In this document: positions 1 to 4,564 of the stretch, one piece after another | How positions within the stretch are numbered: the stretch's first letter is position 1 | Layout of the letters: every line of letters starts with the position of its first letter | IMG/VR virus record: IMGVR_UViG_2609459824_000008 | Source: a virus | Taxonomy: Duplodnaviria; Heunggongvirae; Uroviricota; Caudoviricetes | DNA length: 4,564 nucleotides | Direction: 5' to 3' (one strand) | Notes under the pieces: model-generated | The model's database searches: none | What the model was told of the DNA's origin: nothing | Seen by the model: the letters and a program-made list of their open reading frames with translations, nothing else | Program-made: the position numbers and the translations under genes

Positions 1-222
1 TTTACCCCGATGGTCTTCAACGAGATGCCACGATGCCTCATCACTGTTGAAAACAGCCACAAAGCCAGCAGGAATATCTGGTGGTGCAATATCGGTACTG
101 TTTGCTGGCAGACCTGTATGAGGCGGAATATATGCGTCACCTTCACCAATAAATTCATTAGTTCCGGCCAGCAGATTATAAATTTTTATGGTCCGTGCTT
201 GTTCACTCATTCTGAATGCCAT
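1..222 (-). CDS. tfa: Tail fibre assembly protein Tfa, N-terminal 74 codons; the 3' end of the gene lies beyond the window start
   Basis: Minus-strand ATG at 222-220. Hand translation of the reverse complement of 1-222 gives [74 protein letters not shown], open to the window edge. This matches the lambda Tfa N-terminus as I remember it almost residue for residue. The start overlaps the stf stop as TAATG. It is absent from the supplied ORF track because it has no in-window stop. Confidence 0.9.
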
Positions 223-3200
223 TATGCAAGCCTCACAATATAGTTAAATGCGATGTTTTTGACGGTGTTTTCCGCGTTACCCGCAGCGTTAACGGTGATG
301 GTGTGTCCATGTGAACCAATCGCAACGGAGTGCGTATGCGCACCAATACCTACAGTATGTGCATGTGCGCCAGAACTTGCTGCAGTACCAGACAGCGAGT
401 GGGTATGAGCACCTGCTGACTGTGTCTGAATACGTTGATAATACGATCTATAGGAAGAAGTCTCCGGGCTTACTTGATACTGTGAATTCTGGACATAAGT
501 GAACCCACCGCCATCATAAAATGCTAACGCAGAACCGCCGCCTCCTGGCCAACGAATACCATTACCATGAGTATGAACACCGGCAGACCCCGTAGAGCCA
601 CTCAGACTGTGCGTATGCGCCCCGGTGTTATTCGTGGATTTAGTGCCGTAATCAAACGACGATGTGGTTTTCGTCCCCAAATCCGTACTGGATGCGCTGG
701 CGCTGTGGGTGTGCGATTTAATGCCGTCCTGTTCCTGAGACAATACGGCCCGGCCACTGGCGGGGTTGCCCTTGATTGTCCAGCCGCGCATATCTGGAAT
801 AACACCTGAAGGATAGGCAATAGCCAGTTTCGGATATGCTGCCTTATCAAACGTCTGCCCCTGCATGATTGCATAACCTGCAGGTGGTGTATCTGATGGC
901 CACGGCAGCGGAACACCTGGCGGAAACGCTTCAATATTTGCCGAGCCGTCAAATTTTACGCCGTTAATTGTCCTTGCAGTTTGCAATTTGGTTGCTGTGC
1001 TTGCATTACCCGATAAAGATCCAGTGATACCACCACTCGCGTTTAATTTAGTTGCAATTGTAACATTGCCAGTATGGTTACTAATTATAAACGGCCTTAA
1101 GCTATTGTGCGTACCAAGACTGTTACCCGAATCTGTCAACATAAAATATGTGTTTGATCCATCATTTCGGATAAAGAATCCATAGTTGCCATAGGCAATA
1201 CGCAGACCATTTGCTGACCTTGAAATAACCTCACCAGCAGCAGTTAAACCACCTGAAAGAGTCCCTCCAGTTAATGCCAATGCCCCAATATTTGAAGGGG
1301 TCAATGTGATATTTGCACTACCATCAAATGACACACCGTTAATCGTTCTGGCTGCCTGAAGTTTCGTGGCGGTCGCAGCATTACCTGTAGTGTTTTGATT
1401 ACCGGTAGCGTTGACTCCAGGCAAGTTGATATCTGCCGATCCATCAAATGCCACGCCCCCAATCTTACGTGCTGTCTTGATCTTGGTCGCAGTATCTGCG
1501 TTTCCGGTCAAATTACCAGTAACACTACCACCAACTTTTAGTCCATTACCGATGGACACCAACCCTGATCTTAAGTTTATAGAGAATGGTCTTAATGAAC
1601 CGATGTCTCCATTTTCCCCCTCCCCTTCATTAGTCGGAATAAGATGAAGATGATCTTCGGAACGCCTAAAAATAAGGCCAAAGGCTTGGTTGAATATTCG
1701 AAGAGCATTTATCGTGCTGATTTTTAACTGCCCTCCCATTGTGTCGCCAGTTTTTTGAACTGAACTATCTTTAACAGTTTTAACTGCCTTTGGCGTTGCC
1801 GCCAGCTTTTCACTGGTGCTGTTTGTTGCACTGCTGAGCTGTACTATCCCCTTTTTCGTCGTGCTCGCATCCTCCAGCGCCACGGCGGATGCAATATCCT
1901 CTGCCCGTTTTGCTGCTGTCTCGGCGCGCGTTGCCGCGGATTCAGCAGCAACTTTGCTCTGAGATGCAGCCGTCGCACTGCCTGCCGCCTCTGATGCTTT
2001 CGTTGTTGCTGTCGTGGCACTACCTTTCGCTGCTGACGCTTGTCTGGTCGCCTCATCTTTTGAAGCAGACGCAGATGATGCCGATGACGCCGCTGAACTG
2101 GCTGACGATGCGGCTGCCGCCTTAGAGGAAGCAGCATTGTCTGCTGAAGTCTTTGCATTTGTTTCAGAGGTTTTTGCTGCAGAAGCAGACCTCGCTGCTG
2201 CAGTGGCTTGCTCAGTGGCTTTGCCAGCCTTCGTTGTGGCTGTTGAAGCGGATGATGCGGCGCTTTCTGCCGATTTTCCGGCGGCGGTGGCACTGGCTGA
2301 GGCCTGCCCGGCACTTGTTGACGCGGCACTGGCAGATAATGCAGCCGCTGTTTTTGAACCTGCCGCAGCTGAGGCGCTCTGTCCCGCTGCTGTTTCAGAA
2401 GACTTAGCGTTCGTCTCGGACGTTTTTGCCGCCTTCGCGGAATTTCCTGCCGCCGTTGCCGAGGAAGCTGCGCTGCTGGCGCTCGAGGCTGCGCTCGTTT
2501 CTGATGATTTTGCCGCCTCTTTTGAAGCTGACGCATCCCGGGCTGAGGTGGCAGCTTCTGACGCTTTCGTGGTCGCGGTGGATGCAGAAGTGGCTGCTGA
2601 TTGTTGTGACGCTGCCGCATTCGTTTCTGACGTTTTCGCCGCAGCGGCACTGGTGGCCGCCGCGCTTTTTGAGGACTCTGCAGCGGCAGCACTTTTTTCC
2701 GCTTCAGTGGCCTTTGTTGATGCCGTTCCTGCGCTGGAAGACGCTGACTGAGCCGACGACGCGGCCTGTCCGGCTGACGTGCTGGCTGCGCGTGCTGAGC
2801 CTGCAGCATCAGTCGCATGGGTTGCCGCCTCACGGGCTGATGTGCCGGCATCGCTGGCTGACTTCTTCGCGGCTGCCGTGTTCTGTGCCACCGCGGACGC
2901 GTTACGCGCCACCTCTTCCACCATCAGTTCAAAACGGCGCAGAGCCTCAGGACGGGCATCATCCTCTGTCATGGCACCGAGAAAATCATTCAGCGTACCG
3001 GGTTGAGAATCTTCATACACGGTAATGGTCCCGGCATGTGATGGCGGGAATCCCTCCACCAACAGACTGACGCTGTACTGACCATACTCGACGTCCATTG
3101 TGTAACGCCCGGCTTCATCCGGGTTTTCTGAGGCCACTGTGTTCACCACCACCGTGGTGCTGTTGCGCCTGGCCTTTAGCTGAATGGTGCAGTTTTGTAT

Positions 3201-3248
3201 CGGCTTACCTGCGCCATCTTTCAGTACACCTGAAATCCGTACTGCCAT
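222..3248 (-). CDS. stf: Side tail fibre protein Stf, intact 1008 aa: lambda-like N-terminal domain, Ala/Ser/Thr-rich shaft, tail-fibre repeat modules, His-x-His C-terminal tip
   Basis: Single uninterrupted ORF in the track. N-terminus [36 protein letters not shown] and C-terminus ...[40 protein letters not shown] match lambda Stf and E. coli prophage StfR-type fibres from memory. Minus-strand ATG at 3248-3246 is preceded by a G-rich Shine-Dalgarno-like run (GGGGGG, plus coordinates 3252-3257). Stop TAA at 224-222. Gene order lom-stf-tfa is as in lambda. Confidence 0.95.
303..713 (-). other. C-terminal tip region of Stf carrying seven His-x-His motifs (predicted metal-binding trimeric needle, as in T4 gp37 and lambda Stf)
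   Basis: HxH pairs at residues 846/848, 878/880, 892/894, 948/950, 962/964, 971/973 and 980/982 (SHTHS, GAHTHS, VHTHG, GAHTHS, AHAHT, AHTHS, SHGHT). On the plus strand these appear as recurring gtg/atg-rich blocks, for example gtgcgtatgcgc at 330-341 and 609-620. Confidence 0.7.
927..1010 (-). repeat. Tail-fibre repeat unit 3 within stf ([28 protein letters not shown], residues 747-774)
   Basis: Same 28-aa motif. DNA 946-1010 (gccgtcaaattttacgccgttaattgtccttgcagtttgcaatttggttgctgtgcttgcattacc) aligns by eye with 1321-1385. Confidence 0.8.
1302..1385 (-). repeat. Tail-fibre repeat unit 2 within stf ([28 protein letters not shown], residues 622-649)
   Basis: Same 28-aa motif. The DNA copy begins exactly 120 nt from unit 1 (1321 vs 1441, both starting ccatcaaatg). 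Confidence 0.8.
1422..1505 (-). repeat. Tail-fibre repeat unit 1 within stf ([28 protein letters not shown], residues 582-609)
   Basis: 28-aa motif G-N-A-x-T-A-T-K-[IL]-x-x-A-R-x-I-x-G-V-x-F-D-G-S-A-x-I present three times in Stf. The plus-strand DNA 1441-1505 (ccatcaaatgccacgcccccaatcttacgtgctgtc...) is visibly similar to 1321-1385. Confidence 0.8.
1869..2891 (-). repeat. Low-complexity Ala/Ser/Thr/Lys-rich shaft-coding region of stf (about residues 120-460) with recurring AAKTSETNA-like motifs
   Basis: The translated Stf is dominated by A, S, T, K, E over about 340 residues. KTSETNA occurs three times (residues ~205-211, ~275-281, ~359-365). The GCN/TCN/ACN codon periodicity explains the long shadow ORFs in other frames and on the plus strand (2014..2751 +, 1844..2851 -). 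Confidence 0.8.
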
Positions 3249-3257
3249 ATTCCCCCC

Positions 3258-3285
3258 ACAAAAAAGCCCGCCTGAACCGGCGGGC
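3258..3285 (-). terminator. Rho-independent terminator between lom and stf (minus strand)
   Basis: Minus-strand sequence GCCCGCC-GGTTCA-GGCGGGC followed by TTTTTTGT. The 7-bp GC-rich stem is at plus 3266-3272 / 3279-3285 with a 6-nt loop; the U-tract corresponds to plus 3258-3265. It lies downstream of the lom stop (3313-3315) and ends about 10 nt before the stf start codon. Confidence 0.65.
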
Positions 3286-3312
3286 TGTCATAACACTGTG
3301 TTACCTGGCTAA

Positions 3313-3912
3313 TCAGAATTTATAACCGACACCAACGATGAAACTGTTGGTACGCCAGTCACCGCTGCCGGAGCCTTCATAAGCAATATCAATGGCCACG
3401 GATTCGGTCGGGTTAAACTGCACGCCAGCTCCCCACGCCAGAGACGTGTTGCTGTGGCGACCGTCATCACTTCCGGTCAGCACGTCGTGCGTTTTCCCCT
3501 TGTTGTCAGTTACGCGGAGATAATCCCCGGAGAAAGTCGACACACGGCTGTAAGCCACACCCGCCATCGCATACGCGCTGAACCATTCATTCACGCGCAC
3601 AGACGGCCCCGCCATCACGCTGAACCAGCGGTTACGAACGGAATCTTCATGCCAGCGGGTATCGCTGTAACGGGTAAGCTGGCGATTCTTGTCTCCTGCA
3701 TAGCTGAATGACGTCACCATCCCCAGTGTGTCCGTAAACTCATAACGGTATTTCACGTTAATCCCGTTCAGATCATCGCTGCCGGGAACGTTCGTCGAGG
3801 CATGAAGATACCCCGCGCTCAGCGTGGACTGATGTTCAGATGCCCATGCAGGCGCACCGGATACGGCCAGACAAATGGCTGCGGACAAAATTGCTGCACA
3901 AACTTTACGCAT
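3313..3912 (-). CDS. lom: Lom outer-membrane beta-barrel protein (Ail/Lom family), 199 aa with N-terminal signal peptide
   Basis: Complete [42 protein letters not shown]...FIVGVGYKF, which matches lambda Lom from memory. It has a signal-peptide-like N-terminus with an AWA-SE cleavage context and a C-terminal aromatic residue (YKF) typical of outer-membrane barrels. Shine-Dalgarno GAGAGG (plus 3918-3923) sits 5 nt upstream of the ATG at 3912-3910; stop TGA at 3315-3313. Confidence 0.93.
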
Positions 3913-3933
3913 AATTACCTCTCGCTTTTCTGC

Positions 3934-3960
3934 AATAAAAAAGGCGTCATTCCTGACGCC
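3934..3960 (-). terminator. Rho-independent terminator between J and lom (minus strand), possibly weakly bidirectional
   Basis: Minus-strand sequence GGCGTCA-GGAA-TGACGCC followed by TTTTTTATTG. The stem is at plus 3943-3949 / 3954-3960 with loop 3950-3953; the U-tract is plus 3934-3942. It lies 23 nt downstream of the J stop. On the plus strand the stem is followed by ctttattgg, which is T-rich enough that weak opposite-strand activity is possible. Confidence 0.6.
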
Positions 3961-3982
3961 CTTTATTGGGGTTATAAATATT

Positions 3983-4564
3983 TCAACGAATACTGATGCC
4001 GGAAGCGGCTTTTTTGGTCACAATCACCGTACAGTCGGTGATATTGCCTGCCCCCTGATTGCCTTTCTGGAAAATCTTAAACTCCAGAGTGACGCTTCCC
4101 CTGCCACTCGGCATATCAATAACCGCACTGTAGCTACCGGGAATGGCCCCTTTAGTTTCTCTGGATGCGATTAATACGCCGTTTTTGCGAACTTCAAAAC
4201 CATAACCCGTGTATCTTGTACCTCCCGGGTTATTACCACTTCCCGGATCGCTATACGCTATTCCGTTAAAGATAATGGGCGGAATAATAATTTGACGGTC
4301 AAAGTTATGATCATCGCTGATGGTGACTGTAACCGTCCCGTTTGGTGTTTCCGTATTACCCCACGTACCAGCCTGTTTCGGGAATGATTTGGATACAGCT
4401 TTAACGAAGTCACCTCTGACCTGAGTCGCCTCCAGCATGCCCTTAATCGTACAGTTTTCATTTACCGTGACATTGTTGAGCGTCCCGGCGTTCGCATTCA
4501 CACTGCCACTGATATCCGCATTTTTAGCGGTCAGCTTTCCGTCCGGTGTCAGGGAAAATGCCGG
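3983..4564 (-). CDS. J: Tail tip / host specificity protein J, C-terminal 193 codons; the 5' end of the gene lies beyond the window end
   Basis: The reading frame is open from the window edge (4564) to the TGA stop at 3985-3983. Hand translation upstream of the track ORF gives ...PAFSLTPDGKLTAKNADISGS-VNANAGTLNNVTVNENCTIKG..., matching the lambda gpJ C-terminal region (GKLTAKNADISGSVNANAGTL) from memory. The track's M at 4501 is an internal GTG (Val), not the true start. Confidence 0.9.
   Translation of the reverse strand, partial: PAFSLTPDGKLTAKNADISGSVNANAGTLNNVTVNENCTIKGMLEATQVRGDFVKAVSKSFPKQAGTWGNTETPNGTVTVTISDDHNFDRQIIIPPIIFNGIAYSDPGSGNNPGGTRYTGYGFEVRKNGVLIASRETKGAIPGSYSAVIDMPSGRGSVTLEFKIFQKGNQGAGNITDCTVIVTKKAASGISIR

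Follow-up and report, generated by a model that had tools for sequence, protein, structure and literature searches.

In phage lambda, RNA polymerase modified by the antiterminator Q is resistant to terminators throughout the late operon. The genes lom, stf, and tfa are considered part of a Q-dependent late transcript of 27 genes (PMC10695390), a figure that, by our own count, is reached only if these three genes are included. Morons, a class of genes of which lom has been cited as an example, carry terminators of their own (PMC3594210). Expression of lom in lysogens has been reported (PMC7067206, PMC1151598); in one array study, lom was not detected in lysogens (PMC2147009), and its promoter is described in the literature as little known. 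The idea that terminators in the late operon silence stray transcription of the prophage is attributed to Juhala 2000, as cited in PMC1151598.

The window, i.e., the whole stretch of 4,564 nucleotides analysed here, represents the right-hand end of a late operon of the lambda type, with the 3' end of J, lom, stf, and the start of tfa all encoded on the minus strand (Table 1). In near-identical prophages of E. coli, the RefSeq names for these genes are gpJ, Ail/Lom family protein, prophage tail fibre N-terminal domain protein, and tail fibre assembly protein. Q, qut, and pR' lie outside the 4.5-kb window, and the assignment of the genes in Table 1 to a Q-controlled operon is based on the gene order J-lom-stf-tfa together with the literature.

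Table 1. Features of the window; t-lom and tJ denote the terminators that follow lom and J, respectively.
Feature	Positions	Strand	Description
stf (side tail fibre, 1008 aa)	222..3248	-	Gene downstream of t-lom
stf translation initiation region	3249..3257	-	Shine-Dalgarno-like G-run GGGGGG (3257-3252) and AAT before the ATG
t-lom, remaining U-tract (TTTTT G T)	3258..3264	-	With T3265, six T's in a row abutting the stem
t-lom hairpin	3265..3286	-	5' arm AGCCCGCC (3286-3279), loop GGTTCA (3278-3273), 3' arm GGCGGGCT (3272-3265)
lom 3' untranslated spacer, 26 nt	3287..3312	-	Kept in nearly all variants
lom (Ail/Lom family outer-membrane beta-barrel, 199 aa)	3313..3912	-	45.5% identical to lambda Lom
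lom leader, 21 nt, with ribosome-binding site	3913..3933	-	GCAGAAAAGCGAGAGGTAATT; left end of the lom cassette
tJ terminator	3934..3960	-	GGCGTCA (3960-3954), loop GGAA, TGACGCC (3949-3943), T-run TTTTTTATT (3942-3934)
J 3' end (tail tip / host specificity protein)	3983..4564	-	Stop codon TGA at 3985-3983

Anatomy of the two terminators that bracket lom

An earlier note on this DNA had described a strong intrinsic terminator at 3285-3258 on the minus strand, and the string that it gave is exact: a stem of eight pairs, seven of them G-C, closes a 6-nt loop and is followed by six T's (3265-3260), G3259, and T3258. In a consensus scan of the window, this was the top-ranked terminator-like site. 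The stem begins after a 26-nt spacer from the lom stop codon (TGA, 3315-3313) on the same strand, and the last T of the run lies 11 nt (GTGGGGGGAAT) from the A of the stf ATG (3248-3246), in agreement with the claim that the hairpin sits about 10 nt before the stf start codon and after the lom stop. The features found are thus those expected of an intrinsic terminator, namely a GC-rich stem (~5-14 bp with a loop of 3-8 nt), an adjoining U-tract, and a position on the sense strand after a stop codon. The plus strand offers no T-run after the hairpin, and t-lom is one-directional. RNA folding, which the earlier note had named as a check, gave -18.2 kcal/mol and z = -4.08 for the hairpin alone (34 nt), and none of 200 shuffles folded as well; in a 76-nt context z was only -1.74, because the flanks of t-lom are unstructured.

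A stricter terminator scan, in which a stem of 7 or more perfect pairs, 5 or more of them G-C, and a tail rich in T were demanded, returned two sites on the coding (minus) strand, t-lom and tJ, one for each of the only two intergenic gaps that exist; the sole further match was the reverse reading, on the plus strand, of the palindrome between J and lom. Across 300 dinucleotide shuffles, the same scan averaged 0.057 sites per window and never returned a stem of 8 bp with 7 G-C pairs. By its sequence features and its non-chance placement, t-lom is therefore a canonical Rho-independent terminator for which termination itself is predicted.

The gene lom is accordingly bracketed by two terminators. 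The upstream one, tJ, folds with -15.5 kcal/mol (z = -6.06) and is annotated as 'terminator' in the phage 434 record. Among 25 variants of tJ, compensatory double changes were found in three of the seven stem pairs, with wobble intermediates and with 99.4% of cells paired, and slid controls for this covariation collapsed, which together provide good evidence that the predicted structure of tJ is under selection. Owing to the A's upstream of it, tJ is nearly palindromic and may act bidirectionally. In four loci (L017, L019, L034, L040) the loop of tJ is reverse-complemented (GGCGCCA-TTTC-TGGCGCC instead of -GAAA-; loop at 3950-3953 in the window), as though an in-place inversion of the palindromic hairpin had occurred.

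For t-lom, no compensatory double change was found among 19 variants; 95.3% of cells were paired, shuffles did equally well, and there was little divergence. The single changes across these variants were wobbles mixed with a few breaks. Identity to lambda (L002) is 54-72% upstream of ~3400 and 84-92% from there on, in a block that comprises the last ~85 nt of lom, t-lom, and the 5' end of stf; thus, t-lom belongs to a segment that is swapped as a unit with the start of stf. Since there is no covariation beyond that of shuffles, the conservation of t-lom may simply mirror the 84-92% identity of this whole block. The mosaic junction at ~3400 falls inside lom, such that alleles with 45.5% identity in protein share their 3' end and their terminator.

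Several further observations were made in the sequences that adjoin t-lom and in stf. The lom 3' spacer contains a perfect 13-nt palindrome (TAACACAGTGTTA, 3303-3291, minus strand) just before t-lom, which is present in nearly all relatives, where it shows substitutions in single arms without compensation. The stf initiation region reads GGGGTGAAT or GGAGTGAAT in relatives or includes an 11-G run (L015), and the Shine-Dalgarno G-run itself (3252-3257 in the window) occurs as GGGGTG, GGGGGG, GGAGTG, or 11 G's; the run could be slippage-prone, or the 11-G run in L015 could be a sequencing artefact. On the plus strand, isrG of Rfam was matched three times at 1907-2673, each time below threshold (23-26 bits, where the gathering score is 100) and antisense to an Ala/Ser/Thr-rich repetitive part of stf where long spurious open reading frames occupy other frames. 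These are probably an artefact of composition or repeats.

The lom cassette and its relatives

The 86-nt lom-stf junction is ubiquitous: it was found at 12,172 places in 4,315 of 5,426 complete E. coli genomes (~80%), with up to 13 copies per genome, and it matched 203 phage records. Lambda DNA at ~1x coverage was also encountered in assemblies of unrelated bacteria, including Pseudomonas, Shewanella, Bacillus-like genera, and Kitasatospora (L085-L101, L104, L106, L107, L109, L113, L115, and L117), where the N-terminus of Stf is ~90% identical to that of the window and the hairpin is of the lambda type. These loci are almost certainly laboratory contamination with lambda.

Three loci (L028, L102 from E. 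ruysiae, and L103) lack lom. They have the same tJ and the same left flank, which are followed directly by TGTGGAGTGA(A/G)TATG and stf. A pattern for this junction matched 92 IMG/VR stretches, and of the 96 matches examined, which are loci from both collections, all but one (L201) have the lom-less arrangement J-tJ-stf. The sequences of the window and of these lom-less relatives begin to differ precisely at the end of the tJ T-run, and identical tJ variants adjoin the lom leader in some contigs and the stf ribosome-binding site in others. The difference between genomes with and without lom is one clean indel, which starts with the 21-nt leader (GCAG at 3933) and continues over lom, the 26-nt spacer, and the hairpin as far as the T-run. 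This cassette fills the interval from the tJ T-run to the stf ribosome-binding site, and t-lom therefore takes the place that tJ has in lom-less relatives; conversely, tJ abuts the stf ribosome-binding site in these relatives, and a terminator therefore stands before stf with or without lom. Insertions of IS200-like and IS21-like elements and a ybcW-like junction were seen just upstream of stf or inside lom-stf in the IMG/VR contigs L065, L026, and L003, each of which keeps the junction of T-run and ribosome-binding site. These three loci were considered as independent examples of sequence upstream of stf and were rejected as insertions, rearrangements, or assembly problems.

Terminators in such positions are also found elsewhere in the late operon. 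Phage 434 is annotated with additional terminators shortly upstream of the E and J ribosome-binding sites and with another behind tfa. In this genome (L333), the hairpins at D|E, at I|J, and after tfa were confirmed and a further one was found at E|FI. These GC hairpins, at 6079-6136, 7160-7203, 15445-15507, and 21237-21300, mostly have T-runs, and each is separated by a few nucleotides from the ribosome-binding site that follows. As far as can be read from the sequences, intrinsic terminators in intergenic gaps are a general trait of the Q-controlled late operon and are not specific to lom. The earlier note had proposed that the hairpin serves as a dedicated switch that separates lysogenic expression of lom from lytic expression of stf. 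That claim is not upheld, given that tJ holds the same place in lom-less relatives and that phage 434 has hairpins before E, FI, J, and lom and after tfa. What was proposed as a switch is thus the standard model of a moron with Q-dependent read-through; in lom-less phages, tJ would fill the same role.

Association of a terminator with lom itself is suggested by distant lom genes that are not beside stf. In three 933W-like lineages (the 933W/phi24B type of short-tailed Stx phages), the encoded Lom proteins are 37-41% identical and the genes are followed, 22-24 nt after the stop codon, by AACCCGC-TGTGATG-GCGGGTT and a T-run. A Salmonella homologue (30% identical) has no such hairpin and T-run after its gene. 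As far as comparison can show, t-lom belongs to lom and travels with it. In phi24B, a clear hairpin and T-run lie behind lom on the lom strand (L332, 2078-2100; HM208303, about 45577-45599). A 2015 paper on the 24B_1 RNA found no Rho-independent terminator in the phi24B lom region (PMC4426718); that search may have sought a terminator for an RNA of the opposite strand.

With regard to the status of lom as a moron, the gene lies between conserved neighbours and is missing in close relatives, and it has a terminator of its own downstream, as does the 933W-type lom with its analogous hairpin and T-run. A promoter of its own upstream was not found in the 21 nt that are available between the tJ T-run and the lom ATG. 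The GC content of lom is 0.54-0.585, compared to 0.435-0.49 for the 3' end of J and about 0.55 for the 5' end of stf.

Transcription of lom and of stf-tfa

A tool scan of the minus strand of the window detected no sigma-70-like promoter, and in a weight-matrix scan for promoters of lom or stf the best score was 8.05, against a median shuffled maximum of 10.4. Between t-lom and the stf ATG there is neither room for a promoter nor a match to one: the gap of 11 nt has no promoter-like site, just as the earlier note had argued. Upstream of lom (3913-4564, minus strand), no recognisable sigma-70 promoter was observed either, with 21 nt from the tJ T-run to the ATG and with nothing above chance in the 3' end of J. 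A non-canonical or activator-dependent lom promoter is possible. Of the interpretation given by the earlier note, the terminator features, the promoter-less gap, and a stop linked to lom hold, whereas a switch specific to lom does not, and no lom promoter was detectable.

The sequences show the anatomy, non-random placement, and ubiquity of t-lom, the indel of the lom cassette, and the terminators linked to distant lom genes. We consider it likely that t-lom works as a Rho-independent terminator of the canonical kind, with which the lom cassette ends and which is one of a series in the late operon, and that Q-modified polymerase reads through it into stf-tfa. In this model, unmodified polymerase, arriving from lysogenic transcription of lom or from stray initiation, would pause on the U-tract of t-lom, the GC hairpin would form, and the transcript would be released around 3258-3262; because of this release, stf-tfa would stay silent. 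Polymerase from pR' that has been modified by the late antiterminator Q would ignore t-lom and continue into stf-tfa. We infer the termination event and its efficiency, the Q-dependent read-through, and the start of the lom transcript.

Published transcript ends were also consulted. The consulted supplements of a K-12 Term-seq study (PMC7815308) list no 3' end near lomR-stfR of Rac; nothing can be drawn from this, since IS5 interrupts lomR, which may go untranscribed. In a Term-seq paper on the EHEC strain Sakai (PMC7547250), whose data are deposited in GEO, neither lom nor tail genes come up in the text. Papers on the Pas sRNA (a preprint), riboswitch entropy, IS5, and RpoZ ChIP likewise contained nothing that bears on t-lom.

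Two points concern gene expression in these prophages. In thousands of E. coli prophages, stf-tfa has no promoter of its own and lies behind one or two intrinsic terminators; expression of the side tail fibre is for this reason expected to depend strictly on late antitermination. As for lom, it is boxed in by terminators and has no visible promoter from which lysogenic transcription could start. It might be proposed that the lom cassette is 'transcript-shaped', as it begins with a 21-nt leader, stops with the final U of its own terminator, lacks a promoter, and is inserted precisely where the tJ T-run ends. Morons would then be gained at the T-runs of terminators, by illegitimate recombination directed by the T-run or even by an RNA-mediated route, and/or lysogenic transcription of lom would depend on something else than a promoter in the cassette, for example on leakage through tJ or on an activator-dependent promoter that overlaps tJ. 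This proposal is quite unlikely to hold; if it did, the pair of terminators, and not t-lom alone, would define the expression of lom.

Other functions of the hairpin can be weighed against termination in the lysogen. One is that t-lom acts as a partial attenuator also during lytic growth, where incomplete Q-dependent read-through of two stacked terminators would lower the dosage of stf-tfa relative to J. By analogy, the 'ant moron' that directly precedes the tailspike gene of P22 is described as influencing the frequency with which polymerases from the late promoter get to that gene (PMC2629481), and tJ and t-lom do stand in series before stf. Lom-less phages, however, manage with a single terminator, and the resistance to terminators that Q confers in lambda extends across the whole late operon. 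We consider a role as attenuator unlikely. Another proposal is that t-lom is mainly a stabiliser of RNA 3' ends or a processing barrier, which would shield J-lom from 3' exonucleases after endonucleolytic cleavage of the late transcript, with termination as a side effect. No sizeable gap of the phage 434 late operon lacks a GC hairpin, and at E|FI the accompanying T-tract is weak; in a Q-antiterminated transcript the hairpins cannot terminate, so a second role is plausible. Nevertheless, a perfect six-T run abuts the stem at t-lom, at tJ, at D|E, and at the 933W-type lom terminators, and a hairpin for stability needs none, which makes it quite improbable that stabilisation is the main function.

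The hairpin and U-tract might also take part in initiating translation of stf, either by offering a U-rich standby or S1 site or by setting the ribosome-binding site apart structurally. Regardless of which terminator precedes stf (tJ, t-lom, or, in L065, a hairpin associated with an IS), its T-run is always followed directly by TGTGG(G/A)G(T/G)GA(A/G)TATG. This junction is, however, simply the conserved 5' end of the stf block, and minimum-free-energy folds leave the ribosome-binding site unsequestered; a translational element is thus very improbable. It is extremely unlikely that the lom 3' untranslated region (26 nt and the terminator) is released to give a small RNA that derives from the end of the lom mRNA and binds Hfq. 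In favour of this, Hfq modules usually consist of a terminator hairpin and a U-tail, the lom 3' spacer is conserved, and there are sub-threshold Rfam matches to RyhB and Trp_leader. However, the Rfam scores are far under the gathering thresholds and come from the hairpin alone, and a literature search found no small RNA reported at lom-stf. The 24B_1 small RNA of phi24B, 'between lom and vb_24B_43' (PMC4426718), was rejected as an equivalent of t-lom, as it lies ~100 nt past the hairpin of the phi24B lom itself, on the opposite strand, and in a different context. None of these four alternatives (attenuator, stabiliser, translational element, and small RNA) found positive support.

Comparison with described terminators and morons

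By way of Rfam, t-lom can be compared with the attenuator of the trp operon (RF00513, Trp_leader). Membership of t-lom in an Rfam family was rejected, since all matches (Trp_leader, with 27.3 bits where the gathering score is 41, as well as RyhB and CRISPR-DR28) are sub-threshold and caused by the hairpin. The Trp_leader match arises because the arms of t-lom are almost those of the trp attenuator hairpin (AGCCCGC...GCGGGCUUUUUU). The t-lom hairpin is the stronger of the two (-18.2 against -14.0 kcal/mol). Unlike the trp attenuator, t-lom has no leader peptide and no alternative antiterminator pairing, and only the terminator part aligns confidently.

The likeness to the 'ant moron' of P22 (PMC2629481) is one of position. 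There, too, a moron lies just 5' of the gene for a receptor-binding fibre or spike at the end of the late operon, and late transcription must cross it, but the genes and regulators involved (mnt, arc, ant, and sar) are different. Lambdoid morons (Juhala et al. 2000; Cumby et al. 2012, PMC3594210) are, like lom, extra, non-essential, prophage-expressed genes between conserved late genes, which close relatives lack and which have a factor-independent terminator of their own. In the case of lom, however, the upstream promoter that defines such morons is not detectable, and the GC content differs from that of the J 3' end but not from that of stf.

Within the lambda-type late operon, the terminators at D|E, I|J, and J|lom resemble t-lom in that a GC hairpin and a T-run lie shortly before the next ribosome-binding site with no promoter between them. 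These terminators follow structural genes, whereas t-lom follows a prophage-expressed gene, and the terminator of J shows clear compensatory covariation while t-lom shows none. The closest counterparts are the lom-stf terminators of lambda, phage 434, and Rac of K-12, which are alike in position and flanks and in which the hairpin is the same or nearly the same. The stem-loop is identical to t-lom in phage 434 and in Rac (lomR-stfR), and in lambda (AGCCCGCCG-GAAC-CGGTGGGCT) the top of the stem and the loop are slightly different; otherwise, only the G-run of the ribosome-binding site (GGGGGG vs GGGGTG) and the upstream lom allele differ. In the curated record of phage 434 (OL657226), t-lom is annotated as 'terminator' (19615-19642), with the stf ribosome-binding site directly after it. 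The hairpin is thus already known and annotated, and it is an ordinary member of the terminators of the lambda-type late operon.
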